A stretch of 49,151 bases of DNA, counting the filler, from Basidiobolus ranarum (Eukaryota): NCBI GenBank assembly GCA_040143965.1. It is 2 parts of 2 records of this genome, joined end to end, with 100 filler letters (N's around TTAATTAATTAA, not from the genome) between each part and the next. Parts side by side here need not be neighbours in the genome. Positions count along the whole stretch, not along the records: positions 1 to 24,552 come from JASJQH010000150.1; 1 more part is not named here. One strand, written 5' to 3'. The position numbers were made by a program, and so were the translations under genes. This document shows, in pieces, positions 2,546 through 39,181 of the stretch (positions are counted from its first letter, which is position 1; each line of letters opens with the position of its first letter). The notes beneath the pieces are model-generated. The model was not told the origin of the DNA. It saw only the letters and a program-made list of their open reading frames with translations, and did not search any database.

Positions 2546-4937
2546 TCAATTTTGACGCGTAGTTCTATGTTTAGAGATTAGACTACGAGTTTCCTCTGAA
2601 GGTTCTGCCATCTGTGTTACCCTCTTATCTTGAAAGAGAATAGGTTTGGTGCTGTTGATTTTGGTAAGGCTATCTCTACGCTCGTCACTAAGTAGTGAAT
2701 TGCTTATAGAAAGCCATGAGTAGTACAATATGTGTTCATATCGAAACAAGTCGACCTGACTCTTGACTCGACATGCCTCTCGGGAAATCTCTAATCCTTT
2801 AGCCATATGCTCCGGCGAGAAAAACCTGATTTGAAACTTTACACAATCTCGAAATGTGAATGCTTGATAAATGGATCCTGCTGGGATAACAACTGCTATG
2901 CCTGGCTTTTGGTGCACCGTTTGAATAGAAACACCATATAGTCGAGAGAATTGCTCCAGCTGTGTATTGGTTAGATAGAGTAATCTCTCGTGAATTGGGT
3001 CTTTTGATTTTACGATACGTAATTGCTCACGAACGAAGTCTCTTAAAAGTGGAACCATATTATGTGTAAAAACGTGCCAAATGGCTGCAGATGTTTTATC
3101 TTTGATTTCTTCAAGATCGATGTTATGAATATTTGATACATCCACATTATCCTGCTTGGAAGTGCTCTGTCGTACAGTTAGCATAACGTTGAAAGTGTCG
3201 GTAACTGCAAACTGTAATGGTGTGGTCCGTTCATTCATAGTTAAGCTGGCCGTTTCGTCGTGAAAAATCTCTAATTTTGCAGAGAGTTCTGGTTGAATAT
3301 GAGATTTCGGAAAGTAACTAACGAGATTATATTTTCCTTTGGGGAGTATATATTCTGAAAAATTGTTCATGACTAATAAGTGATATATATCCGACCAGTG
3401 TTGTGGAAACTTGATTGAGAAATCTTCCTCAAACGGCCAGCACTATATACATAAGGAATACGTCAATTTAAATCCAATTAACACATATGCTTTCCAAAAC
3501 TTACAGTAAATGCGATCGAAACTTTGTTCTTGCCAATGGAAAGCCCTTGGTCCGTTCCTAGCTGGATATTTTGCAAAACAGATGTATCGTTTTTATAAGA
3601 AACTTTCTGAGCGAATTCATCGATTTGAAGGTAATATGGAATAAAATATTCTGGACTCCAATTCTTTCGAGTGTTTTCCATGCTTAATTTCATAACGATT
3701 ACTTCTCCTCTTAACCAACCTATGCCCAGCGGAGAAATATAGTCTTTCGAAGTTGGGTAATTGCATTCTTCTTTAGTCTCTGGCTGTACTATTCTGGGTG
3801 CTTGAGAAGTAAATAATTCCTCTACAGAATTTAAAATTGCTATAAATTGACTTGGATCCAGTAAGCAGACTCGAAGCCACTTATGCAGAGCATTTCCGTA
3901 TGAATTGATACCGTCGCATTGGGCTTTCGCTTCATTATACTCAAGGTAGCACTCCTGACAAGTTTCCTTCCCGCAGTGTTGACAAAACCAACAACCGCTG
4001 AATATGTTCGTGTAGCAAATGTCACAAACCGTTCGCACTCCTTCTTGAGTGGGTCTCTGTAGATGGTCTTCAAATTGAAGGAACCCCACTTCGGTTTGAA
4101 GTATGGAATTAATTACCACATAAATATTTCGTTTAATGTACAACGCCTCAGCTGGCTTAAGATCATTAATATAGTATCTGATTTGTTGTAGTCGCTCTAT
4201 ATTCTCATCAGCCGGAGAGAAGACATTGTTTATCTGGTAACTTCTTAACGTACGGAAACCTTGAAACCGACAATGACCACTCATATGATGACGACAACTT
4301 CGACAATATTCAAAAGGCCTCAACAATTTATAAGATAGACATGGTCGATTTTGGATCGAAGTTGTTAGCTCTTCTAAACCGTTTTCTGAATTTTCTTTTT
4401 GTGTTCTTTTTGGTATTTCAGGTCCGTGAGCATATGGGGTGGATTTTTCATACTCCTCGGAGGATGAAGAGCTGGTGTCTATATCACTTTTACAAATAGG
4501 ATGCAAGTATCTATTGCACTGGAGTTGAGATAGAGTGGGTGACTTCCTTTTTGATTCTTGTAACTTCAGAATACTCTGGGCTTGAAAACGAGCCGCAAGG
4601 TTGCTGTTCTGATAGCATAAAGTTTGATTTTGATCCACTTTTGAAGTACCGTTATCCCCTGTATCGTTCCTTGACTCTTGGCTTTCACCTAATCGCTCCT
4701 GGTTGGGATTTTCCTCTGTACGGCAGATACGATCAAGCGATAGAGGCAAATTATCGAACAAGTATTCCGAGTCGTGATTCTTGTGCGCTATAAGAAATTG
4801 GAAAGATAGTCATAACATGGCAATAAAAGAGGAACCGGAGATATCTCTGCTACTTTACCTAAGAGATTTCGTCTTACATTATTTTGAAACCATTCTTTAG
4901 TTATGTCCATTTGGATTTGATTATGAGGGACTCCCAT
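2546..4937 (-). CDS. KDM3/JMJD1-like zinc finger + JmjC protein with catalytic residues substituted; exons 4937-4859, 4787-3505, 3442-2546
   Basis: Motifs CRSCR..CRFQGFR, C6 finger CDICYTNIFSGCWFCQHCGKETCQECY, WPFEEDF, AAIWHVF, DPIHE and QKPGIAVVIPAG..FFSPEH follow KDM3 order. Introns 4858-4788 (GTAAAG..TAG, phase 1) and 3504-3443 (GTAAGT..TAG, phase 0) join the ORFs in frame. True start uncertain. Confidence 0.85.
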
Positions 4938-5852
4938 GCTATGAGTCGATACCTACTAGCAATGATGATCTTTTTTGCTAGAGTTATTTTTAAATACAAC
5001 TTCGTTTAGATAAATTTGTACATTTATACATTTTCGTTGATCAGTAAGACATGTATCAGATGAACCATCAGTATCATCGGATACCATTTTTCGAGATAAT
5101 GACTACTATTCATTTGAAGCCTTACTTAATGACAATTCATGAAGAGCTACCAATTGGCAATCATCGTAGGCTGTGTTCACCAACGATGCCCATACATTCC
5201 CAGCTACTAAGGGCACTGCGTTGTGGAACATATTTTCTGGAGCAAGCCCCAAGAACTAGTACCACTGTATCTCAGACTCTCCAATATCTAAGTTTATGTT
5301 GACCTCTTGGCTGCTCTGTGGAGCTCTTCCCTGAAAGAGTTGATTTTTCGTATTTCACCAAGTTGGCGGGAACCGTTTTACTGAAGATGCTAGGGTCTAT
5401 TTTAAGTATCTATATTTTGCCAGGGTTACATCAGAGATGCATCCCAAAGATTCTGGTTCTTGGTACCTGCACGGTAAGAAATCTCCAAAGCAGTGATATC
5501 GCGCGTCGCATATTGTCAATTGAAACGTCGTGATGCAAATGGGTTGTTTACTATTCTGATTGTTATCATTATGAATCTGATTGGTATATGCTACAATCAA
5601 AGTGCCCCTCTTTTTAGGTGCGCTGCCATCATTATAGGCTGTAGGAATGCAGAATATTGAATGCGGAATAGCTAACGCTGTATGTCGAGGTGATCTTAGT
5701 TAAACTTGGAAAACATCGGATATTCGTCAGTCTTAAAATTCCCAAGCGTATGTGTCATCCAAAAGGGAAATGTGCACGAATGGGTTACAGGCTGCGACGG
5801 TAGCTTTAGAACATCCATCAATATTATCACTTGACCTGTTCGATGATGAAGA

Positions 5853-6006
5853 ACGTCAGAAGTGATTTGCTAGAGTATGCTCTGATTGTATACGCTGTCT
5901 TTGTGAAGTAATGCATTTATGCATGACGTGGATGTGTCAAGCAAACACTGATTTCAGCTAACGTCACTCTTTTTCGGATTAATGTCCGAGATTAAGTATA
6001 TATAAA
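5853..6006 (+). promoter_or_regulatory. Three TGACGT (CRE-like) motifs plus TATA box upstream of microprotein 1
   Basis: ACGTCA 5853-5858, TGACGT 5924-5929, ACGTCA 5961-5966, TATATATAAA 5997-6006; ATG at 6053. Confidence 0.45.
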
Positions 6007-6052
6007 GCAGGCGATGAGGTATCATAATTATTGCTATTCCAACTTTCTTAAC

Positions 6053-6283
6053 ATGAACACCCGCTCCAAGACCAAAGGTTCAGTATCCACCAGCACCGAG
6101 AAGTCTCAAATGACTTCCGATTCCGCCGCCTCTCATGATCAGGAACAAAGTATCAGGCAAGCTAGGGAGCAGATAGAACGCGAAGAAGAATTTATCAAGC
6201 AAAATCCACCTAGTAAAGCGGGGACTAACGAAGTACATGATGCTTCGGTCGAGGGAGAATTCTTACGATCGAGCTATCATTAG
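6053..6283 (+). CDS. Small hydrophilic protein (76 aa) with TNEVHDA motif
   Basis: TATA upstream, ATG 6053, AATAAA downstream; S/T/E/Q-rich; motif shared with next gene. Confidence 0.65.
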   Translation: MNTRSKTKGSVSTSTEKSQMTSDSAASHDQEQSIRQAREQIEREEEFIKQNPPSKAGTNEVHDASVEGEFLRSSYH

Positions 6284-7056
6284 TATTGTTATCTTGTACC
6301 ATCTTGGCATTGTATATCTGTTGCCACTCAATAAAACTTCATTTGAATTTCAAGTCACACAGACTGTTCCCTCTTTCATTAATAATCCCTAAACTAAGGC
6401 AAATCCTCAATCACGGGATACATTAATTGCTACTCGCTATGGAGTATGGACTGATTGGTGGTCATTCAGATTATCCAGGATAGAATGCGGATGCATCTAT
6501 AAACCGATTTCCAGAATCTGACGCTTGGAGATGAATTGTATTTGGTCACGAGGACAATGGCTTGGAGATGACAATCTCAGGTATGTTAGTATCATAAACA
6601 TCTTAAGTGACGGTTGTGTTTCGGTTGGCGCTTTCAGTGAAGGCAATGAACAGTCATCACTAGATTATCGTCTACCATCGAGATAGACCATGCACAATCC
6701 TATTTTAGGGAAATCCGACTGTTCAGCATCACCTCACTGAGTGGTCAAATCAAAGTGGATCTAAGGGAAGAGGCTTTGTGACACAGATGGACGATGATAA
6801 TGGAACCCTCATGACAGTATCAAGAGGAGTTTTTCAGGTAAATTGATGGTCAGATATAGCCATACTAATGATGATTTATTCTGACCAAGCGGCTTTTGCA
6901 CATGCCACTCGTCGAAATGGGTGTATCTCGTATATGACAACGTAGCACTTGAGTACGCCCAGGCTCCGTGCATCCATGAGGCATCAAGTATTTAAAGAGG
7001 ATACTGGCAACGTCTCTCCTCAGATTCCCATTTTTCCTTCAAACTCATCAACTCCA

Positions 7057-7230
7057 ATGGAAGCACAAAACAGAACTTCTGACAACGCTCAACAGGTCGA
7101 TATTGTTGCTACTGTCCAAGACACCAACACCGTATCCGAAACAAATCAAATTAGCGACTTGTCGCATCCTCAGGCCACCACCACCACTAATGAAGTTCAT
7201 GACGCTAATCATGTGATTCATCATCATTAA
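7057..7230 (+). CDS. Small hydrophilic protein (57 aa) with TNEVHDA motif and His-rich end
   Basis: TATTTAAA 6989-6996, pyrimidine-rich leader, ATG 7057; ends TTTTNEVHDANHVIHHH. Confidence 0.6.
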   Translation: MEAQNRTSDNAQQVDIVATVQDTNTVSETNQISDLSHPQATTTTNEVHDANHVIHHH

Positions 7231-7797
7231 GTAATCTGGCTTCGGATCAAATGAGCCACCTTTTCTATCGACTTTGACCCTTGAATATCGCAAGTGGACG
7301 CTTTTTATTCATTGACAATCAAATTCGTCATCTCTTTGCATTCCAACTGAATATATTCCACATCTGCTTAATAATTTCTAATAAACTAGTTTGACTACTC
7401 GTACTCAATGTATACCTGTCTTATGAATAAGCCCCATGTTTCCACAATTCTTGCCTGAAGTAGCCAGCATATATACATTATCAAGTTCTGTGCCATTATT
7501 ACGTTCATCTGGATTCTCATAGCATCTTAATGAGAACTACAGTACCGCCAAACAACTCTGTCTTTAAATACGCTGGCCTGTTAGATCATTTCCTGGCTCC
7601 TGAGTAAAGTTGTTTACCTAATCAATTGATGGCAATTTATGTACCTCAATGCTCATAATCAAATCAAAGGAAATGGAAGTCCACATATCATGTGACTCGC
7701 AATCTAGACATCTGAGAGTTCAAGTAATATACTTTACGTTTGCCCTAAGATAGGGATATCCATACACACCCAAGTTTGACAACATACCAAAGACAAA

Positions 7798-9039
7798 ATG
7801 CCATCCTCTTTTAGCGGTGTTCGCTTGAAAGTTCAACTGAAACTCACAGTGAATCGACTCAAAATGCTACAGGCAAAGAAAAAATCTTTAAACAACAAAA
7901 TCCGTAAAGAACTAGCTTTACTTCTTGAAGCTGGAAAAGAAGAGAGTGCTAAGATCAGGGTAACCCTAAACACCCCTTTAAGAAAAAACCATAATTTCAC
8001 TTGATTTACTTTCCTTTTCCCACAGGTAGAACGAGTTATCATGGAAGATTTTCACACAGAGGCTTTAGAGATCTTAGAGCTGTATTGTGAATTACTGTTA
8101 TCCAGATTCGGTTATATAGAGCAAATTAAGTAGGTTAATTTTGTACTTCATTCTTAATATTAATATTAAATTGGGTATATATTTGTTAGTCAATGTGATC
8201 CAGCCATCATCGAAGCTGTTCACACTATCATCTACGCCGGTATGCGTATATCCGAAGTCAAGGAATTCTTAGCCGTATGGTTTATTTCTACAGCTTGTTT
8301 GTTGTTATTCACTATTGATATAACTTCTTCTAGATACGTGATCAATTTGCAGCTAAATATGGGCGTGAGTTTGTTGTCTCCGCTCTAGATAATAGGGATA
8401 ACACTGTGAATCCAAGGGTTTGTATATCATTTGATGTCCTTAAGCTTGCTTACTGAGAAATCTCACTGTTGTTACAACTATATCATAGATCATCCATAAG
8501 CTTCAAGTGCATACTCCTGAGCCATTCTTAGTAAATCAGTATCTCTCAGATATAGCCAAAGCCTATAATGTCAATTGGAAACCGGATGATGAAAGCCTGG
8601 TAGGTTCATATGAGGAATATTTCAAAATTTAACAATAGCTAATGTTGTTACAATGACGATGTTTATACCACAGACTTCTGATATGATAAGTAATTCCGAA
8701 GATCTTCTCCAGGATGTCCCCGCTCTCTCTTCTACGCAAGTTAACAAATCTCCGATATCGGATGTTCCACAGGGGTCTAATAGCCAGGTACTAAACAGTA
8801 AAAGTAATATTTTAGTAACGAAGTGATACTCAAGTATGTCATTCTTTTATCAGGAAAACGATAAGGCAGAGGAATTGGGAACTCATCATGACTTTCCTCA
8901 AACACCTGTTGATAATCCAAAATCCTCAAGCACTAGTAGTTCTAATTCAGGAGGTCCAAAATCCGCCAACGATAATTCGGGACTGCCGGATCTTGACGAA
9001 TTAACCCGTCGCTTCGAAGCCTTGAAGAAAAGAAAATGA
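7798..9039 (+). CDS. IST1: IST1, ESCRT-III associated regulator of Vps4; exons 7798-7959, 8026-8129, 8190-8274, 8334-8417, 8489-8599, 8674-8787, 8854-9039
   Basis: LKVQLKLTVNRLKMLQAKK, AKIRVERVIMEDFHTEALEILELYCELL, KYGREF, YLSDIAKAYNVNW and C-terminal MIM1 DLDELTRRFEALKK; six in-frame GT..AG introns. Confidence 0.95.
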
Positions 9040-13711: not shown

Positions 13712-15944
13712 CTTGGAATTTTCACCAACCTTCGTATACGATGAATACGTTGATTTATTCAATCATTGCTAGATGGTTGTGATTAGCAATTAAAGCATAT
13801 ATACATTATTTGCTAACGTCCATAGAATTCCCCAGTAATAATTCACTGTACTACCATGGATAGTTCATTTATGTAATTCTGAGGTCAGTTTGAAGTCGGC
13901 TGTGCATATATTTTAATGAAATGGAATTCCTAATCATTTCAATAGCCGTGGATGAACGCTTACAATCGGTGCAGTTATGAATGACAGTTACCCTACTAAA
14001 AGTTTGGTAAATTGATCTACATAGGCTAGGAATGTAAGGAGTACAATATTTTACTCGCCCGCCAATCTAGCCCACATGGTGGTCTCGGTTCAAAGTATAC
14101 TAAGCAAAATCTCCTGTCACACTAGTCTACAGATCTCGTACATTGAACCTTTGGAGGGCAAACACCTAGCATCGCCATATCTCCTTCAACAAAAACTACT
14201 TCAGAGTATTGGTATCTACAGAAGCTAATGAAAGCGCAAGAGGCACTCTACTAGTCACGACTTTTGCCTATTACGTCAATCAGGATTGTTTGCTTTTTGA
14301 CGAGTGATTTGGATGGGAAATAACATGCTTTCTAGTAGTATCCAATTGAATTGAAGGAAGAAGTGACTAGTTTAGAAAGATATGCATTTAGGTTGATTTC
14401 ACTCGCTCTCCAGCAACCAGTAGTCATTCTGCATTAAGGAGTTTCACTTGTGTACTCCCACCACCCCCTGTGTTCCCACGGGATTAGCTGTCAACTCGCA
14501 TTTGAATTACCATCTGAGAGGTTGTGGATATGTATTTCTTAGTTGGGATGAAAATTAGACATACTTGGCATGAGGGATTTACAACAGGCCTTATATACGT
14601 ATCTGAGCATTTTCAAAGACTTACACGCTAGAACACGCGACTTGAAACAGAGAGCTCTGACGCTTCTGTTCTCTTCATCCGCAACCCATGAGCCTTGGTA
14701 AACTGGAGGCTTGAAAAGGTGCTCTTACCCTGCTCACTTGATTGATTTGTCGCAACCCCCGAACTTTGAGCTTTGTCTGTAAACCTCACCCCAGCACACT
14801 TGAAAGTGTTCCACGCGGTACCTGGAATTTGGCCAGAAAGGTGACAGCAAGCAAGCTAGTATGGCTGTCAAAACTCCAATCATAGCTATTGTGAAGTGAA
14901 ACCTTAGTCAAATATGTCCAACACTATTTCCCATGGAGACCTTTTTCCAAGCTGTCAGATTCAGAGTTTCGCTAATGCCCAAATTAAGGGAAAGTCTCAG
15001 TGGCTGGATATTGCAGAACAATGATTATGACCACATTGTGGCAGTGAAGGCATTTGAATTGAGGCAGATTCCCATAACAATGTTACACATGGATGTGAAC
15101 ACTTGACAGCACCAAAAAGGGCATTGAATACAGATCTCAAAGCAAACTCAATCATTCAAAGGTCGAACAGGTGAGTTCAAACTCTTTGACCACTAGTAAA
15201 AAAGGATCCACTCTGCACACTCGCCAGAGCATATACTGCACCTACTTCTTTTCCTACATTAATCGATAGCGAACGCACGAGCCGATACCATCATATAGTA
15301 CGCACATCGCTAACCTTTCGAGGTGCCAAATCCTAGGCCACTATTCATGACGCCACAGTTGCTGAAAATGACTATTAAGGAACTAACAGGGCTTACGAGT
15401 GTAGGGCATTCTGGAATGAAGGATTTGATATACTAAGGGAGTCAGCCAGCCACATGGAAAATAGAATCCTGTTTGCAAGTGGCAGTTTCCAAATTAAGCT
15501 CCGCAACTTTGTAACGGTTTTCACCGTATCCTGAGAGCTATAGATCTTCCCACGTTTTCACAGCCCCACTCACTCATTTGCACAAACTTGATGGGTTGTA
15601 TCAATAGTTTGGCTGTTTCGACTCTAATGATGTTATTTGAAATGCTCGCATCATTAGTCATATTCATCTTCACGCTTTAAGTACCATTGAATCCATACCA
15701 ACCAATAATGTATTAGCTTACAAGCAGTGTATAAAAACTGGGCTATTCTTACTGAATCTGTACTTGCATTCATACATTTAGGATAAAAATCTAGTTCGTT
15801 TGACCGGATATTTTCTCTTTTTTTTAACTTGCAATTCGTCCGTATCTTTATTTGATTTTTAGTCTCGTTTAATTCTCTTATATCTTTCACTTTCACCTTG
15901 GCAATCCTCTACGTTCGTCCTTTCATCCCTGTCGATATACAATA

Positions 15945-21960: not shown

Positions 21961-23954
21961 GATCAATAGATAGATGCTTTTCTTAGAACTGAGAGTATGA
22001 AAATCCCTCTATGGGCTCAGAGGGTTTTATATTGTTTTTCCGTTTCAAACCATAACTGGGAATATGCAGATGCCAGGTTTGAGAGGTTTGTAGCATACAT
22101 CCAATGATCCTCACTAGTTACAGTTAGCGGTCTTGAAACAAATAGTCCGCGAGCACCTTGTACCAATTTCAAGTATCGGGTAAGGAGTATCAACTCACAG
22201 TAACACATTCGAAATACTCCTTATCACTCATGCATCAAGTTCGTCAAGTTTGAGGGGGTAAAAGGGCTTGATAGAATCTAGAGCACCCAGTATATTGATC
22301 CGGTATTATCTCAGAAGACCTGCGCTGTAGTTTAGGTAGCAACCAGCTTATTTTACACTTCGAACCCCATATCTGGATTTTCCGTACATGCGGCTAAATT
22401 TGCGCACTCACTTACCTTTCTGGTGATTGGGGCCCCTTGTTGTGAGGGATTTTAGAAGATGATCAAGTGTCTTGGATTTGCTTTAGAGTACACTATGCCC
22501 TCATGAGGTTTTCCGGTGCATCCGACATGCGTGTTACTCAAGTACAATTCGTATGATTAAAATCAAGTTATCCTCGCCATGTAGGATCCTTGAAAACTCT
22601 ACGCAGCGGTGCAAGCATTCAATTTCTTGGCTGAGTTGTTTCAATCAGCAACGTGAATAGAGCGGATAGCAAGTTACCAATCGATCTACCAAGATACCAT
22701 GGACTCGGCATGCTCTGGGTACTTTGAATTTACCGTGGTAGGATTTACATCGTGTATGCACTTGAAGATTCCTGTAAATTGAGAAATTCACGATCAGAAG
22801 ATACATCTATCAATCACTTAGTACCAATGTTTGTATTGCTTTACAGTGCCTTCCCTGTGCTTTATCTTTTATCATAGTGATATTGGATTGATTATGAAGG
22901 GGCTTGTATAAATACTGCTTGGATGTCAAAGGAAGGGATAGCACCCATACTCCAGTTCTTTGTAATAGGTGGTGGATATAATACTTCAAAATTGTAAAAT
23001 CAGTTTTCCAGTTAAATTGTAATGACTTCATCCTGTTTCTGATTGTTTTGGGTTGGACTTGTTTCCCCTAGCCTCAGATTGTATTGTAAGTAGAAGCAGA
23101 GTAAGTATTTTGAAGTGTATACTGGACAATTTAGTGTTGATCTCTATGTGGCTTGCTGACAGCAAGTCTATATTACCACAACATATTCTCAAGGTCCAAA
23201 AGCCACCAACTTAATTAAGCAATTCTATTCTAACAGTTGGTTTTGATGAAAAATCCAAACAGCTAACTAAAATGCTTTTATATCATGATTAGTATGCTCA
23301 TTGCTTACTACCTAATAACTTTTATTGGGTTCATGAGAGTAATGATAAAAGGTTTTGAACTTTGTGAATCAAAGAAACAATCAATTGCATATCATACAGT
23401 TAGTCAACCAGGAGATGTTAACAAAGCAGACCTAGACCAATGTATACTAGGGTTTGAGTAGACATACAAGTAAACTTAAATTTCTCACATACATTTTTAA
23501 ATTGTAAAGTTTTTGCAAAAATACCTTTGTAGCTGGCATTTTGATTGGTTTACTGCTTGATGAATTCAAATAAGCTAGTATGCCTTTATTTATCCATTTT
23601 TGGCTACATGTTCCAGCTATGGTACAAATAAAAAAAAACTAGCATCTCATTATGTGTGGTCTCTATTGGGAAAATATGGGCTGTTTGGAGGAACTTTGGA
23701 AAAGTGGAGTTGTGAATAGCTTTGTGAGATAACTATTTATTGTCCAGAAATAAAGCATTTATACATTTTGGTAGAAATACAGAAAACTAACCCTGGGGTT
23801 GCATTCAGAACATCTGTGGGAATAAAATGAGCTATCTTTGGGGCAATTTGGACGAGTTTGAAATTTCCAATATGGAATTGCTAATTCTCACATTATTTGC
23901 ATATATATATAGTATATGTTCCAATTTTCAGCTAAGTATAATTTAACTAAGTAA

Positions 23955-24552: not shown

Positions 24553-24652
24553 NNNNNNNNNNNNNNNNNNNNNNNNNNNNNNNNNNNNNNNNNNNNTTAA
24601 TTAATTAANNNNNNNNNNNNNNNNNNNNNNNNNNNNNNNNNNNNNNNNNNNN
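24553..24652. other. Assembly gap with artificial six-frame stop linker
   Basis: 44 N + TTAATTAATTAA + 44 N = exactly 100 nt. Confidence 0.97.
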
Positions 24653-27781: not shown

Positions 27782-28141
27782 TTAATTGATCTTGAAATAG
27801 TGACTATAACGTTCAACTCCTTTGTCGGTGACAATACGAATGGAATACTTCTCTCCAGGTTCCAAATCGTCAGGCACTGACCAGTCATACGATTCTTCAT
27901 TGGCATCTACATCAGTTGCAATTGCAACTGTCAACGCTAAGTTAGCCTTAGGACCCTCACGAAGCTCGATACTGACAGTCTCGGCTAGATCTGCTGCATC
28001 AATGATCCACGCCACGCTTACATCCTCACCTCGCCTCCACTCTGAATGTTCTACTGGATGAGTAATAGAAACCTCTGCGCCAACATACACAAGTGCCAAC
28101 ACCAAGATAAGTAGGAAGCTGCTAATATTGAATGTGCGCAT
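27782..28141 (-). CDS. Small secreted Kre9/Knh1-like N-terminal Ig-fold protein
   Basis: Signal peptide; ITHP..WRRG..V.W, SYDWSVPDDLEPGEKYSIRI, YSHYFKI; no Ser/Thr tail or GPI signal. Confidence 0.8.
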   Translation of the reverse strand: MRTFNISSFLLILVLALVYVGAEVSITHPVEHSEWRRGEDVSVAWIIDAADLAETVSIELREGPKANLALTVAIATDVDANEESYDWSVPDDLEPGEKYSIRIVTDKGVERYSHYFKIN

Positions 28142-29217
28142 ATTGGATCTGCTTTTCTGCTTAAGAAGTGAGTATTCAAAAAGCTGGACTTTATATGGTT
28201 TTCAAATCCCTAAATTGTGCTGTCAATTGAAATAACCCATATATTCGATTATACATATATTAATTAAAAGTATATGTGCTTCCTGTGAATTATTTGCTTC
28301 GTACATTTGAATGATTACAGGCACCATGAGCAACGTCTCGAAGTAGGGGTTGAATGAAAAAAACCTCTCCTACTGGATGATAAGGAGCCTACATAACATA
28401 ATGCTTGATTTGATAAAGTATCCAGTGAAATTTAGCCAGAAGCAAAGAGAAAGTGTTGCTTGAATATTGGGTTAATATGCTTGCAAGCCACTTATTAGTG
28501 CGATTTTGATCAATGGACAATTCTTAGAAAGTATGGTTTAATATTACTGTTGAAGTTCTTATTGTAGCTAAGCTTTGACCCTAGTTTAAACTAGCTCCGG
28601 TCACAATTGGAACAGCTTAAGTGAATTCAATTTTGAGATCACCATCAAATTAGGCCAGTTCTATCTCTTCAATACAGATATTTCGGAAATAGCGTTCATC
28701 AACTCCAATCAGATATTGGAAGATGGCCATGCTGATATAGTCTTTAAGCGTAGACAAACGGATTTTAGAGGAGTTACACTAAATAGATCCGTGTGATACA
28801 TAAATGGACATCCCGAATCTGCAACCATGTGTTACAGGGTCTATATGTTTTTGCGCATACTCTATTGCTTGTGTATGAATATATCTACATATAGATGCAA
28901 TGTAGGTAATGCTCACAGGCGGTGTATATCCTAGGTTAAAAATAGCACGGCATAGTTTGATGCAACTTGAGAACCCTGCAGAGAACAATACCCAGAGTAA
29001 CTTTGTATTTCAATTCATTTTTATTACACAATTGCACATATATCCATTAGTGATTATGCATGAAAATTTATGGAAAAAAGAGGATTGCTAAAGTGTTAGA
29101 TAGAAATAGAGCAACAACCTGTATATTTGATGCTGTGCTTCCAATCGATGTGGTATTAATTGTCAACTTGGGTTTAGTTACTGCAAGGTATGTCTTCTCT
29201 GAAATACCAACAACTTA

Positions 29218-29733
29218 TCACGAAGTCTCCACGCATCTTCCGTTGAACGAATATTGTGGCAAACAGCCAGTTCCGCAGTATTCACTGGATCCACCACAGT
29301 ACCCACCTTCGGAGCAGCATGGCATGCTCTGAGGACAAATATGGCCACCGAAGTTCGGACATCCTTCATTTTCTGGTAAAGGTTCTTTCCCTTGGATAGT
29401 AAAATAGGAACTATACTGATAATTTTCGGGCACTCTTCCAATAGTTACAGCGTAATCGCGTGCGGTGGAAAGCTGGGAAGGAACCACATAGCTACAGCTT
29501 CCATCTGGGCCCCCTTTATTGTAGCAAATTGGATTTGGTAAAGCTAACTGAAGATTGCTCGCCTCTCCATGTACTAAACGGACATCTACGCTAGTTTCTA
29601 CTGAGCCAGTCCAGGACACTGTAACATTTGAACCTGTTTTCCATACAACCCCAGTACCTGGAGTGATCACGTCCCCGGAACATATCTCTAGCAGACTCAG
29701 GGAAATCAGAGTGAACAAAACCTGTGCAAACAT
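29218..29733 (-). CDS. Secreted Kre9/Knh1-like Ig domain + hevein-type CBM18 chitin-binding module
   Basis: Signal peptide; Ig domain ending YSSYFTI; eight-Cys CPNFGGHICPQSMPCCSEGGYCGGSSEYCGTGCLPQYSFNGRC. Confidence 0.85.
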   Translation of the reverse strand: MFAQVLFTLISLSLLEICSGDVITPGTGVVWKTGSNVTVSWTGSVETSVDVRLVHGEASNLQLALPNPICYNKGGPDGSCSYVVPSQLSTARDYAVTIGRVPENYQYSSYFTIQGKEPLPENEGCPNFGGHICPQSMPCCSEGGYCGGSSEYCGTGCLPQYSFNGRCVETS

Positions 29734-30586
29734 TAAGTGGAGTTAGAAGTACTGAAAGGAGAGATATTTGTTAAACTATTCTTGCGCACCTTCGTATTTA
29801 ATAGATTTTGCCAAGTAGTATGTCCAAATCATTATTTCCCAATATTTTCAACTTATCTATCGAACTCTATTATTATGCTGCATATTCATTATGTTGGGCA
29901 GTCAATTTGCTGAAATGCAACTGATACTCTGGACATGAATAGGGATTAATTTCCTGACACTAAATTAACGCTACCTTGCATTAATTATATTAAACAATCA
30001 AAATAGTCATTGGGAAAGTAGCCAAAAGAGCCTTTGCTAGAGAACCTCATAAAAGAACTGCCCTATCAAGTAGGTAATGATAGGCTGAACTCTCAGGCGT
30101 CATCTGCACTCCTGAGAAGTATCGACCCATTAGTAAATTTGCCGGTGGAAAACGGTCATGAATGGATCAGCTACTGTTGAGAAGTAATAATTCCTTTGGC
30201 GCTTTGATGCACAAATTCAGCCCTAATAATTTCACTATCAACTGTATGACCGTACTCCTCCATAATTAAAAGCTATCTGAACCACATTGCGATTGGCTTA
30301 TTATAACTCCAGGAAGCAACCTCATTACAACCACCTTTCATACAGGGGAATAGCGATCTTTGACGAATACTCGGAAGAGTGGAATAAATCCAACTTTTTG
30401 AGGCAACTTTAATTCAGGGGGTAACATCCAGTAATAAAGATATGAATACTGGCGGAGTGGGAGTGGAAGTCTTCATATTAATAAGATTTTGGGCTGTATT
30501 TATTATACTAAAATGGAAATTACTATGTTCAAACTCTACATGGTTCTATCCTTGGAGCTATTATCACTTACCAAATGGTATCCGCT

Positions 30587-33475: not shown

Positions 33476-34564
33476 TCAAACACCTTCATCGTAGTCACTG
33501 GCAATATGTACTTTGACGTTGGAGTCTTGGCCCTTAGTGATACTGGCGGCTGGGGAGCCAGCCTTGGTTTTGGCCCGTTCTTCTCTGCTATTATTGGTCC
33601 CGGAGGCTTGGTTGGCTGATTGGGAGTTCACGTTTGACAAGGATTTGGAGTTCTTCTGGCCCTGATATATATCCGTAAGGGGTCTCTCTCCTACCACTAC
33701 ACCATCAGGGAATCTAGTCTCCTCTTTCTTATCAGTTTCCTCTCCATACGCTTTAATCGGGGCCTCAGGAGTAGACCTGAACTCCAAAATAGGGCTATCC
33801 TCGGTCTCTGTTTTCTCGTATCCATAGCACGCTTTAGATTGTGAATTCTCATTCGATCTTTGCTCTACAGCTCTAATGTCGGTATGTGACTGAGCCTCTA
33901 TTCCTGAGGGTTTCTGATCTATTTGGTTTAAGCGATGTGCATACCTCTGACTGGGAAACCCATTTGAGGCTTTATTGCTTTCGCAGTCATCAGGTTTAGT
34001 AGACCTTTCGATCAATGTCTTGCCAATTTTTGGCTCCTGGTTGCTAATCAATTTACCATGTCCTACTTTGTTAGGTTGAGGTACCATAGATTTAGGGTAT
34101 GCATTCATATGATCTTTGTTGGATGGAGGCCCCATAGATTTAGGGTATGTATTCATACCATAAGTGGCCTTTTCATTATCAGATAGTTTGCTGCTATCGG
34201 CTTCAAGGATTGGCTGACCAGCTGGTTCCTCTGGTGAAGTAAAGTCATCAGAGCTAGCTCCAGTGTCGTAAGGACTCACAGGATTAGCATGGAACTCAAC
34301 ATACTTCAGGTTACTAGCATCATTATCGCCCATGTAGGGATTAAGATCAGGAGCATAAACAGTAGGAAAGTTACCAGACTGTTTGCTTTCATTGTTAGAA
34401 TTCGACATCAAGTAGGATGGCGAATGCTCCCTTCCAAACTCAAGCGCTCCTGAATTTATTTTTTCGGAATTCTCTTGCACTCTATTATACTTGGGGACAA
34501 CTAGTCCCTCAACCATAAAGAAGGCAGAGTGTACTATTAAAAGGTTTAAAGAAATAGATTTCAT
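33476..34564 (-). CDS. Secreted, largely disordered S/N/E/K/P-rich protein
   Basis: Intact 362-aa ORF, N-terminal hydrophobic signal-like segment, TATATAAA upstream (~34679-34672). Confidence 0.7.
   Translation of the reverse strand: MKSISLNLLIVHSAFFMVEGLVVPKYNRVQENSEKINSGALEFGREHSPSYLMSNSNNESKQSGNFPTVYAPDLNPYMGDNDASNLKYVEFHANPVSPYDTGASSDDFTSPEEPAGQPILEADSSKLSDNEKATYGMNTYPKSMGPPSNKDHMNAYPKSMVPQPNKVGHGKLISNQEPKIGKTLIERSTKPDDCESNKASNGFPSQRYAHRLNQIDQKPSGIEAQSHTDIRAVEQRSNENSQSKACYGYEKTETEDSPILEFRSTPEAPIKAYGEETDKKEETRFPDGVVVGERPLTDIYQGQKNSKSLSNVNSQSANQASGTNNSREERAKTKAGSPAASITKGQDSNVKVHIASDYDEGV
34062..34157 (-). repeat. Two-copy 48-nt in-frame tandem repeat
   Basis: MNTYPKSMGPPSNKDH / MNAYPKSMVPQPNKVG; CCATAGATTTAGGGTATG at 34084 and 34132. 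Confidence 0.85.
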
Positions 34565-35231
34565 TCCGGAAATGATTAGATTAGAGAAATGGGGTTTAAA
34601 GTTAAAGATGATGCACGCCAGTAACCGAGTTCAGTTGGTTTGGGATAGAGTTCTTCATCAACAGGCTCTGATTTATATACGAGTATCTGATACATATCTT
34701 ATTTACTCCTTGAAACGAATTTTCTTCGCTACAGATATTCGGGATACCAGCCTTGCTTATGATTAAGTAGTATTTAGTAACAAAAAGCAAAATCGTTATG
34801 GTGTCTGCACATCAAAAGTAGGTAGTGTTTTTTCGCACCTATGTAACTCCCCTTACATTTGAAAATTTGCGAATATCGATCTGTTATTTATTTCTATAAG
34901 TATTATGACGATGGCCGTATCGGAATTATATTGTATGACTTAAAACGAAAGAATTAACTCGCTGATCATGGTGATTGAGATTTGCAGATGCTGTTGAAAT
35001 TCGGATACTTGATACGCTAATCTTTATTATACTTGGACTTTAATTATCAAACGTATTTCCGCAATTCTCTGCATAACAATGAGGTAAAGTAATGACATCA
35101 AACAACTTCGCAACATACTGGGTATCTGAACAATGAAAGTAAATAAACAAATAAATAGAGAGATATTATAACTATAGGGAATTTATCTAATGTTGCAATA
35201 ATTACTGAATTCTTAAATTCTAATGCGAGGT

Positions 35232-36737
35232 TTAGTTTTGCCTTGATCGGTACCATCTACTTGTTTTTTCCACATTAATCAGCGCTACTGGAGATACGTA
35301 GCCAGACTTGTTTAAATCACTGATAATCTCTGCCTGTCTTCTTTCAATTGCTCTGGCTCTATTTACTGGGATATTCATTTTTTCCAAGTACCATGCTGGC
35401 AGTCCCATAGGAATTCTTAGATGGATTCGATTACGGCGATCGTCGGGATTTGGCCCTCCATATTCACCAGAGTATGAGAAAGCACCTTCTATATCTCGTT
35501 TTTGCAGATGAACTGGTAATGAATCAAATTCAAAATTCGATGAGAAATTCCCCAATTTAGTGACTTCACTGGCCTTTTTCATGTCGATTAGGATTTCATC
35601 GGATGCCTCTGTCTCGGTTGTACTTTCCACTGGTTCTGGAGTTGGGTTAGGGGGTTTGTGGTTTGATTCGCTCTCTTTGTTATCAGCAGTTGAGGGTGCT
35701 TTAAAATTTTCACTTGGTGCATTGGAGTATTGATAGCATAGCGTGTCAATGGGAAGTAAATCCTTCACTTGAATTTTGAAAGGTATCAGGTCGTCTTCTA
35801 AGGAGGCACGAGTATTATCGGAGTTTAATCCCAAATAGCTTCTACTTCTTGTATCGTTAGCCGCTTGCCAATCCGCCCAAATTTTATCTACAAACGCGTG
35901 ATGAATCCAGAAAATAGGACTATATTCAATGGGAGGCAGAGTTAGTCATATGAATAATCGCTCTACCAAAAGACTAACAAACTGGCCTTGAGATGCTCAA
36001 TCCACTAGGATAACAACAATACTTACTCGTTTGCGCTAGAAGCCATATCCATATCTCCTTTTTCACCACCAATACCGATGTGAATTCGATTATGAGGTAC
36101 ATCTTCAATATATTCATGAAGTTGTCGATAATCTTGAGCATTTTCAATAAAGTAGTTGAGTACCTCGGGCGGCATAAATGGTGAAAGTAATGTATTTCTA
36201 TCGAAATCCCGTCTCAAACAACGCTTTTCGGGAATCGCAACTGGCCAGTTGGCAAAAGGACCCGTCAACACACACGAATCAGGGCCCTCTCCATTACCTC
36301 CGAACCAATTGAACACTGGACTTTGTTCAGGAGCTTGGGAATCCAAAGACCAATCCTACATAGACAAGGGATGAGAATTTAATCTACTTGTGACATAAAA
36401 GTATTCGAAGGATAAGCATTGAATATTGAATTACCCAAAATGGTATCGTCACTTTAGGATCAATTTGTTGTAATGCCAGCTCAAATCTCTTTAAAAACCA
36501 TCTATGCCAGGGGAAAAATGGTGCGAACCCGTGTGCAGTTTCGAAGAAGCTGTTATGTTGTATTACGAACGCATCGTATTCGCCACGCTTCTTTAACTCC
36601 AAGATGCTATCGATGAAGCGATTTCTCTCGTCGACTGTAAGTTGCCTAATCTCCCGCCTAGTATGAATTCTAGAGCATTCTAGCGAGCTCACGAGGGGGA
36701 TAGATATGGATAGTACTGCTAAAGCGATCACACGCAT
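35232..36737 (-). CDS. Secreted tyrosinase (type-3 di-copper); exons 36737-36435, 36355-36027, 35919-35232
   Basis: Signal peptide, RREIRQL, CuA His (QHN, TAHG, FFPWHR), IPFWDWS, CuB His (HNRIH, [22 protein letters not shown]); both introns in frame. Confidence 0.93.
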
Positions 36738-39181
36738 TGGCAAAAGGTATCTTTAATGGTAACAAGATATTACTTGTATTCTATATACTGTCTGCTAGTG
36801 ACCAAGTGACACTGATGATAGGTGAGGATGGGGAAATCACTTGATTTTGGTAACAAGAAAAAATCCAACTTGCGAAATTAGGCAACTCTTATATTTGTTA
36901 GAAAAGGATCTACTGTAACAGGTGCGGACTCTTCCTTTGTTAGAAGTCGTGTTGATTATTTTGAGGTGAATGTAATTCCATGTCCGCTCGGTAGCACACA
37001 AACTCGCATGTAACACTCAATCTTTGTTTCAAGTTTGTTTTTATGGGGTGTTGAGATTCTGATAAGCCGGGGTAATAGGTAAACACCTCGGATTTTTCAT
37101 CGGAATGATAGGTATCAAGCAGCACATCGGTATCGAATACTGACCTTACGATAAGTAGTGTAAAGTTAGATGATGGTACCGCCACTCCCATTTTGCAAGA
37201 TCACATGTTCATGTCCTCACCAACGTTGGTATATATATATCTTGAGGGAAATGATGAGAAAAACCAACCAACACCAGCAACGATACTATACCGCTTGACT
37301 CTGAGAGAAGTTTGACCCCGACGACCATATCTTTTGTATCAGAAAGTTCAATAATGTATCAGGTGTGCTTTTATCAGTCAAATGCCATTTCTCTACTCGA
37401 TGATGTGCACATTAAGATTATCGGAGCCAGAAGATGAAGTTCTCACGACGATTATCGTCAATGAAATACCCCCCCATCTACTAATACTTGGTGTCTGCAG
37501 GTTTCATTATAATCATGGAATTTCCCCTCAATAAGTGAATGCATTAAAGGCTTTCTAGCAAAACATTACAATTCTGTGATGAACGATACATCACCTCCTC
37601 CTCTCACCAAGTTGCCTGTATGACACCACAGTGATTTATATGGAACTCCACAAACAATACAAGCACTTATTATCATATTACTGAACTTCCCATTAGTCCA
37701 ATACGAAACAATTGTTGGCTAATCTTTGTGATAATAAACATTATTTGTCAGCTTAGCTCATCCAGACGTCCGAGATATGAACGAGTTTCAATTTAAACCG
37801 GTATATAAGATATACACAAACTATCCATTGGTGGATTGGTGGAAATGGAAACATTGAGATTGATGATGTGGTTGGATTGAAAGGTTCTGGTTTCTTCTGG
37901 GAACCGGCTTTTGACGGCATAGATGTCATTCTTTATTCAGCACATATCTGGAATATGCAAACGTGAAGTAACCTACACCAAGTCTAATGCTATGATTAAC
38001 AGTAGTATTATCAGCTGCGTGTAATCATGCTTGCACTTCTTCGCATTACTCGTACATGCACTGCTTCAATGTGCATTTTCTCAACACTCGCCATACCTTC
38101 AGGTTAAAGCAAATGCTTATGTCGAATGCAAGTGCAAATCTACATAATCCAAGATATATATGTAAATACCACATCAAATGCAAGCGGATATTCTACTGGA
38201 CTCTATGGGCTATTCAAAATCCATGGCGTTTCCATTATTTAAGCAAATAATGCGCATGATGTGGAAGTTGGTTTAATTTTAGACATCACCATGGTTTCCT
38301 CAAACTCATTAATCATGCAGACGACGTCTGTCTACCTCATAAGCATCAAATAATCAATTTGCGAATCAAACCTTTTCTTTTGGAAATGATGGGCTTTTGC
38401 AGGTCAATTATTAATCTGCTACCTGGTGTTGCGTTGAACGAATCCTTCACCTCTATATACAGATACAATGTGTGCTTGAAATTGCGTGAAAACGATCAGT
38501 CTTGTTTCAAGTAGGTAATGCAGGCGGTATTTGCTATGGGCAATTCTATAATAACGCCTACGTCGTTTCCAAGGAAATATCCATCTTTTTTGTGAGGTTT
38601 TTCCAAGTTCAGATGAATAAAATAATCGGGGTTGGCGCCAACTTTATATCTCTTCATGCCAACTCCTCAACTGTTCAATTGAGTAAGATTGCTGTTTGTG
38701 AGGTTAGACTGTTCGACGTATCAGAGAAATTCGAATAAACCTTGGTTTGTGAGCTGAACGAATCACCTTTCTTGCATAAACTGCACCTTCTTAAAAGAAT
38801 CAAATGGATATGCATCAACCGCGCATCTCAGTCAATTACTTTCTTCCATAGTTTACTTGTTTTTCAGATGCTGTCATGTCTGGCCAATGAAGATTAGAGC
38901 ATAAGCTGAAGTTCAATGTTCGATAAATATTCTATCCTGCCATTAAGATCCGGCATCTTTCTAGGCGCCTAGTAATGAATGCCTGTCTTTTTGGAGTTTG
39001 ATGAGGTTTCAAAAGGCTCAGACATATTAATGAATCTACATTACTTTTCTGAATGCTATTTAAATAGACCAGACCTCAGCGGAAGTTATCAAAGTAGTTT
39101 AATCAACCACCACACCGAAAGCCGACTCTTTTTCGTATAACGCCAGTATAGTATTCATCATTACTTCTCACTAGCCTAATC

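Follow-up and report, generated by a model that had tools for sequence, protein, structure and literature searches.

Sequence evidence for a genus-restricted microprotein gene and its probable tandem paralogue in Basidiobolus

Taxonomically restricted, disordered microproteins that act via short linear motifs are known as a general class. Hydrophilins are defined by a glycine content above 6%, the ligands of forkhead-associated (FHA) domains take the form pT-x-x-[ILV] or pT-x-x-D, and in other fungi TGACGT sites are bound by Atf1/AtfA-type basic leucine zipper (bZIP) factors, which drive stress and spore programmes. Here we analyse two neighbouring short open reading frames (ORFs) of a Basidiobolus genome (GenBank assembly GCA_040143965.1), located in a stretch of 49,151 nucleotides that we call the window throughout. 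ORF1 (6053..6283 on the plus strand, stop included, ATG 6053) specifies 76 amino acids (aa) and is read here as a conserved gene for a predicted disordered microprotein, and ORF2 (7057..7230 on the plus strand, stop included, ATG 7057) specifies 57 aa and is a candidate hydrophilic microprotein; the lengths and the outer coordinates, 6053 and 7230, agree with the original prediction for this locus, and both products carry the heptapeptide TNEVHDA. A described motif that invites comparison with this peptide is FFAT (a pair of phenylalanines within an acidic tract), whose consensus is given as E-F-F-D-A-x-E within an acidic tract, a ligand of the MSP domains of VAP/Scs2 in which the main pocket of VAP is occupied by the Phe or Tyr at position 2 (PMC7610837).

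By their features ORF1 and ORF2 belong to the taxonomically restricted disordered microproteins: they are under 100 aa, appear genus-restricted, are predicted to be disordered and show conservation in short peptides, and the family itself is uncharacterised. The explanation that we favour, and regard as somewhat probable, is that they are old tandem duplicates encoding a disordered microprotein confined to the genus, and that the conserved peptide in its tail serves as a docking motif. ORF1 and ORF2 would then be two single-exon genes that are transcribed separately, each ORF starting at the first AUG behind its own TATA box, and both would derive from an old tandem duplication within a microprotein family known to date from Basidiobolus only. 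The paralogues would have retained the disordered-tail peptide T-N-E-[VI]-[H/Y/F]-D-A and, 37 residues upstream of it, a smaller block, (T)SD-x-A.

ORF1 and its relatives in Basidiobolus

ORF1 is similar to annotated proteins of the genus over its full length, from Met to stop and across 100% of its residues. The two orthologues are K7432_003423 of Basidiobolus ranarum (P0002; 73 aa, E 4e-16, 62-64% identity, 100% coverage) and K493DRAFT_61131 of B. meristosporus CBS 931.73 (P0004; 94 aa, 49-51% identity), each deposited as 'hypothetical protein', so that they name a family and not a function. The similarity begins at a common Met and continues as far as the stop, interrupted by two short gaps when the proteins are aligned; among ORF1 and its two orthologues, 35 of the 76 positions are invariant. 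Judging by the identities, we take the window to come from a Basidiobolus-like fungus distinct from both of these strains. An ORF1 frame that is open in three species at such divergence argues for a coding gene, and on this comparison we take ORF1 to be real and conserved. Like ORF1, P0002 and P0004 carry an N-terminal M-x-TRSKT-[KR], the SD block, T-N-E-[VI]-x-D-A and an end in VEGEFL-x-SSY, the first and last of these being kept throughout the ORF1 lineage; unlike the window proteins, they have Tyr or Phe in place of the motif His and Gln as the last residue, and neither of them is a counterpart of ORF2. Codon usage, scored with a table trained on the 12 long ORFs of the window, was best in the sense frame out of six for both ORFs; among 109 short ORFs, ORF2 ranked 3 and ORF1 ranked 13, these ranks referring to the longer first-ATG forms of 84 aa (ORF2) and 89 aa (ORF1).

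The borders of the gene follow from the same alignment. Neither the N-terminal extension of P0004 (21 residues) nor the stretch opened by the in-frame ATG at 6014 of the window has an alignable counterpart, and this ATG, which lies 7 nt past the ORF1 TATA box, is by its closeness to the box probably upstream of the transcript start. These borders also bear on the idea that the ORFs belong as exons to one larger spliced gene or to two, or that they are upstream ORFs of IST1, the gene starting at 7798. The window is intron-rich, with Ist1, tyrosinase and aldo-keto reductase each spread over several frames, and ORF2 precedes IST1 by 570 bp in the same orientation, but three gene models from three species give the same Met-to-stop ORF1 protein, similarity stops at those borders, and both ORFs are preceded by a TATA box and followed by an AATAAA. 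Moreover, IST1 needs no upstream exon because its Pfam match starts at model position 1, eleven residues past the ATG at 7798. We consider an origin of the ORFs as exons or upstream ORFs highly improbable.

Searches for a wider family returned the genus and little else. No Pfam family matched ORF1 or ORF2 at E up to 0.01, and a sequence profile search of the PDB gave a single hit, at E 5.2. HMMER over 1,835,955,588 representative proteins gave three hits, all of them from Basidiobolus or the window's own, and with an alignment as query against 5.8 billion word-indexed proteins, 4 of the 18 candidates passed, which were the same Basidiobolus set. Within these collections the family thus appears, so far, to be restricted to the genus. 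The literature search, with supplementary tables outside its range, found no paper that joins Basidiobolus with a microprotein and none that contains the string TNEVHDA; a broader query had no Basidiobolus paper among the 12 matches listed. The original prediction had spoken of a microprotein family that it did not recognise, and this holds, as the ORF1 orthologues are merely hypothetical proteins and Pfam, PDB and HMMER name none.

The proteins themselves are strongly hydrophilic, as had been claimed, and both products end in His. The grand average of hydropathy (GRAVY) is -1.32 for ORF1 and -0.90 for ORF2, with -1.44 and -1.29 for the orthologues; Ser and Thr together make up 20-25% of the four sequences, which contain no Cys and show neither a signal peptide nor a membrane segment or other long hydrophobic stretch. 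AlphaFold2, run on the four-sequence alignment, gave a mean predicted local distance difference test score (pLDDT) of 62.5, with a single charged helix at ORF1 residues 28-50 and coil elsewhere. In the ESM Atlas, the ORF1 model had a pLDDT of 0.48 with unrelated small helical proteins as its structure neighbours, and no usable feature hits were obtained for ORF1 or ORF2. The models thus predict that the proteins are disordered but for one central helix in ORF1. A coiled-coil dimer formed through this helix was considered and rejected: Ile 34, 41 and 48 are heptad-spaced in the window protein, and the orthologues do not retain them. A secreted peptide, pheromone or precursor of a ribosomally synthesised and post-translationally modified peptide was set aside, the N-terminus not being hydrophobic and Cys being absent; inspection of the sequences by eye, with no dedicated test, showed neither paired-basic sites for cleavage nor a hypervariable core.

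Such a composition could also be that of bulk protectants against stress or desiccation in spores, of the hydrophilin or late embryogenesis abundant (LEA)-like kind, which would work without a specific partner. Like the hydrophilins and LEA-like stress proteins of fungi, the ORF1 and ORF2 proteins are small, very hydrophilic by GRAVY and predicted to be disordered, with 23-25% Ser and Thr in the pair, and the promoter is possibly of the stress type, a TGACGT cluster standing ahead of ORF1 and such sites having a stress and spore role in other fungi. Unlike hydrophilins, however, they have a glycine content of 3.9% (ORF1) and 0% (ORF2), with 2.7% and 5.3% in the orthologues, so the hydrophilin label proposed in the original prediction does not fit. 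What is conserved, moreover, is a set of discrete, short exact peptides and not the composition, and Pfam returned no LEA, Hsp12 or Con-6 match. We regard the protectant role as doubtful.

ORF2 as a candidate paralogue of ORF1

The shared heptapeptide lies at 6224-6244 in ORF1, ahead of VEGEFLRSSYH, the stretch that is conserved best within the ORF1 lineage, and at 7186-7206 in ORF2, where NHVIHHH follows, both on the plus strand. A back-translated TNEVHDA pattern matches only at these two places in the window; the corresponding expectation of 0 refers to a pattern that was picked after the fact. The DNA of the two copies differs at three codons (AAC/AAT, GTA/GTT and GAT/GAC), every change being synonymous and in third position, exactly as originally described. 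The use that was made of this observation does not hold up, because the peptides are identical and any DNA differences between them are synonymous by definition, so that an argument from all-synonymous changes is circular; four identical and three different codons out of seven are what a saturated or random synonymous choice would give. The claim that the peptide is conserved survives on other grounds, in that the ORF1 orthologues keep variants of the motif.

To judge the sharing of a 7-mer as such, 200 windows were simulated with a second-order Markov model and all stop-to-stop ORFs of at least 45 aa were compared. At least one 7-mer was shared in 99 of the 200 simulated windows, with a mean of 0.73 per window, and the real window holds a second exact case, SMWLADS, in the unrelated frames 23026-23211 (plus strand) and 15396-15557 (minus strand), on opposite strands; this sharing is evidently due to chance and shows the background rate. 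Pairs with a 7-mer in common that lay on one strand and no more than 2 kb apart came up only 4 times over the 200 simulations, about 2%. The unusual point is the arrangement of the two frames, on the same strand and close by, and not the sharing of a 7-mer as such. A further chance case came from a metagenome pattern scan for orthologous DNA, in which one of 50 pattern matches passed tblastn: a bacterial contig of high GC content (about 60-69%), L001, codes at 493-603 for part of a protein, 347 aa or longer, in which ITNEVHDASV occurs. It was rejected as a chance match, the nine-residue coincidence with ORF1 having been met only because the scan targeted the motif.

The relationship of the two frames extends beyond the heptapeptide. 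BLASTP of ORF1 against ORF2 gave E 3e-4, and shuffled versions of ORF2 equalled the best observed match in 1 of 5000 cases for 6-mers and in 0 of 5000 for 7-mers. On an ungapped diagonal anchored by the 7-mer, residue 1 of ORF2 pairs with residue 15 of ORF1 (ORF2 against ORF1 residues 15-71) and, with the 7-mer left out, 8 of 49 positions are identical (p=0.0066 against permuted positions; p=0.007 for the BLOSUM62 sum). Part of this signal comes from a TSDSA block in ORF1 (6113-6127, plus strand) that is collinear with TSDNA in ORF2 (7075-7089, plus strand), the spacing from the TSD-x-A block to the motif being exactly 111 nt in both. The 8 further identities make the pair alignable without any gap, which corrects the original prediction, where the two proteins had been called otherwise unalignable. 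Along the diagonal, 15 of 57 third codon positions are identical, the random level, as against 23 of 57 first and 24 of 57 second positions, which is consistent with a duplication old enough for its silent sites to be saturated.

ORF2 may contain more than one version of the motif. Two adjacent degenerate copies, TNTVSE and TNQISD (first six residues only), are found at 7123..7158 on the plus strand; they follow the pattern T-N-x-[VI]-x-[DE], which has 7 six-frame matches in the window, 4 of them inside ORF1 and ORF2, and three copies were reached in 0 of 100000 shuffles of ORF2, the pattern being one that was fitted after the fact. We treat these internal repeats as a lead only.

Several observations weigh against the explanation of the pair as paralogues carrying a docking peptide. 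A profile built from ORF1 and its orthologues (three sequences, without ORF2) gave ORF2 just 6.1 bits and E 1.3 among 1577 six-frame segments, and the strong E-values of P0003, the gene-caller version of ORF2, are circular, ORF2 being part of the query. P0001 and P0003 are both gene-caller products from the window's own assembly, recorded on a contig whose 24552 bases equal the length of the window up to its first run of N, and add no independent support. BLASTP of ORF2 against P0004 yielded no alignment, and against P0002 it returned the 7-mer and, beyond that, just one further weak segment (E 1.4). ORF2 is without VEGEFL-x-SSY, TNEVHDA is invariant at just 5 of its 7 positions among the orthologues, and a pattern-free self-repeat test of ORF2 fell short of significance (9-14% of 5000 shuffles). 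Both docking and the interpretation of the promoter are parts that we infer. Finally, no ORF2 orthologue was found in the searched protein collections, though an old duplication predicts one; this is a weak objection because short genes often stay unannotated. The original prediction had named a lack of conservation in relatives as grounds for abandoning it, and what was found is ORF1 at full length in two other Basidiobolus species, with ORF2 lacking such an orthologue.

These observations could be explained by ORF1 alone being a gene, with ORF2 a chance frame or part of an unrelated transcript and its TNEVHDA a coincidence. Nearly half of the simulated windows share a 7-mer, SMWLADS is a real example, an unrelated bacterial protein carries TNEVHDASV by coincidence, and both the orthologue profile and the protein collections miss ORF2. 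A chance frame would not readily account, however, for the same-strand adjacency, for the remaining diagonal that exceeds chance at p=0.007, for the codon-usage rank of 3 in 109, or for a TATA box of its own in a like context, with the ATG of ORF2 as the first one behind the box and an AATAAA downstream. We think this alternative unlikely, and on the sequence comparisons ORF2 is likely to be a diverged paralogue of ORF1.

The tail peptide and its possible role

Over the four sequences the motif reads T-N-E-[VI]-[H/Y/F]-D-A, the orthologues having TNEVYDA (B. ranarum) and TNEIFDA (B. meristosporus). In place of the motif His, B. ranarum thus has Tyr and B. meristosporus has Phe, and where ORF1 ends in His both orthologues have Gln, so that metal binding, one of the roles put forward originally, was rejected: neither His is conserved. 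A short linear motif is suggested instead because conservation is limited to short peptides in predicted disorder, with a central region that changes freely. Under the favoured explanation, the tail peptide would dock in the groove of a folded partner, anchored by its Val/Ile and by its aromatic residue or His, and Asp-Ala would provide specificity. In this role the microproteins might serve as small regulators of the partner or as its competitors, and ORF2 might offer up to three copies of the peptide.

The possibility that the peptide is a divergent FFAT-like ligand, docking on the MSP domain of the endoplasmic reticulum protein VAP/Scs2, can be weighed residue by residue against the published consensus. 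Its core, E-[VI]-[HYF]-D-A-[SPN], parallels E1-F2-F3-D4-A5-x6 (PMC7610837). As in FFAT so described, the peptide has seven residues in a stretch of predicted disorder, Glu1, Asp4 and Ala5 are invariant in all four sequences, the orthologues have an aromatic residue at position 3, and acidic residues follow the motif in the ORF1 lineage (VEGE). Unlike the described consensus, position 2 is Val, Val, Ile and Val in the four sequences instead of the pocket-filling Phe or Tyr, and an acidic flank is missing upstream (SKAG, SQVA, HPTM and ATTT): in each of the four, Asp and Glu are absent from the six residues before the core Glu, and ORF1 has Lys there; position 7 is Val or His instead of Glu. With two defining features of the consensus absent from these sequences, we do not file the motif as FFAT, and VAP/Scs2 docking through such a divergent peptide seems very unlikely to us. 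No MSP-domain protein was found among the 63 window frames scanned.

The motif also recalls FHA ligands, since all four sequences have Thr with Val or Ile at +3 (T-N-E-V/I), as do the two extra copies in ORF2, but the pattern is very loose and, for these sequences, we judge the resemblance too loose to count.

A bolder form of the docking proposal would make the peptide a new docking motif, either of a new class or as a non-canonical VAP or FHA ligand. The genus-specific pair would then tune, or compete for, a conserved hub, with ORF2 multivalent through up to three copies and ORF1 switched by an ATF/CREB-type factor in stress or spore formation. We offer this as a speculation, and a rather unlikely one.

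If the favoured explanation is true, the locus would be a clean small example of a lineage-restricted microprotein gene that duplicated and then kept a peptide of few residues, and the peptide would provide a defined handle for a partner search in an early-diverging fungus that has been little studied at the molecular level. The general picture would be unchanged, orphan disordered microproteins being of a known kind and the ORF1 orthologues being already in the databases as hypothetical proteins. As regards method, an exact shared 7-mer with synonymous-only differences is by itself no evidence of selection; here an adjacency null, orthologues and an anchored-diagonal test were needed besides.

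Transcription signals and the surrounding locus

TATA-like boxes stand, as first reported, before both ORFs; they are at 6001 and 6989. The ORF1 box, AAGTATATATAAAG (5994..6007, plus strand), contains TATAAA at 6001 and lies 46 nt before the ATG at 6053; the ORF2 box, AAGTATTTAAAG (6986..6997, plus strand), contains the TATA-like TATTTAAA at 6989 and lies 60 nt before the ATG at 7057, with no intervening ATG. The TATA-to-ATG distances are thus alike for the two ORFs, and an alternative ORF2 model of the gene caller, P0003, starts at the ATG at 6976 and has 84 aa. The boxes also have the context AAGTAT-N1-4-TAAAG in common, which has 3 matches in the window against 0.22 expected, for a pattern chosen after the fact. 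The third of these matches is at 35022-35034 (minus strand), about 460 bp upstream of a frame of 362 aa (33476-34564, minus strand) whose N-terminus is hydrophobic and precedes a long hydrophilic part rich in Ser, Asn, Pro and Lys; no Pfam family matched this frame, which by its composition may encode a secreted or wall protein.

On the 3' side, an AATAAA, a candidate polyadenylation signal, is found at 6330..6335 (plus strand), 47 nt past the ORF1 stop, and another at 7380..7385 (plus strand), 150 nt past the ORF2 stop. The plus strand carries no further AATAAA in 5901-7800, and one stands behind each ORF; composition predicts about as many, and their placement is weak evidence.

Upstream of the ORF1 TATA box, at a distance of 30-145 bp, there is a cluster of three TGACGT matches, the ATF/CREB-type half-site, at 5853-5858 (minus strand), 5924-5929 (plus strand) and 5961-5966 (minus strand). 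The window as a whole has 13 TGACGT in 49151 bases against 14.7 expected, three of them within these 114 bp, and a rough estimate puts the chance of such a triple at about 0.005, for a site picked post hoc. By analogy with other fungi, ORF1 may be induced under stress or in development via an ATF/CREB-type bZIP factor, whose binding to these sites we infer; this would be the switch for ORF1 in the favoured explanation.

The window has a G+C content of about 39% and is gene-dense, intron-rich and eukaryotic. Its Pfam matches point to housekeeping genes of fungal type, namely those for Ist1, synaptobrevin, Tim17, a 4HBT thioesterase, a mitochondrial carrier, a JmjC protein, a tyrosinase, an aldo-keto reductase and two Kre9/KNH proteins. 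Scanning the window against Rfam and for tRNAs gave no matches. The ORF1/ORF2 pair sits between the JmjC gene on the minus strand, coding to at least 4809, and the gene for IST1, a regulator of Vps4, on the plus strand. The latter is the same-strand downstream neighbour of ORF2, with its ATG at 7798 and a second exon from about 8041, and is recorded here over 7798-8130 of the window. Minus-strand frames at 4790-5870 were considered as a divergent neighbour gene and rejected, since Pfam was empty at E up to 1 and their codon-usage rank was not high; this segment is treated as intergenic or as the 5' part of the JmjC gene.

Farther along the window, two runs of N, 44 each, occupy 24553-24596 and 24609-24652. 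The Kre9/KNH-like N-terminal domains occur in two adjoining frames, 27785-28201 and 29221-29742 (both minus strand), the second of which also has a weak match to a chitin-recognition domain, slightly under the Pfam cut-off. The tyrosinase gene, at 35235-36752 on the minus strand, is spread over at least three frames.

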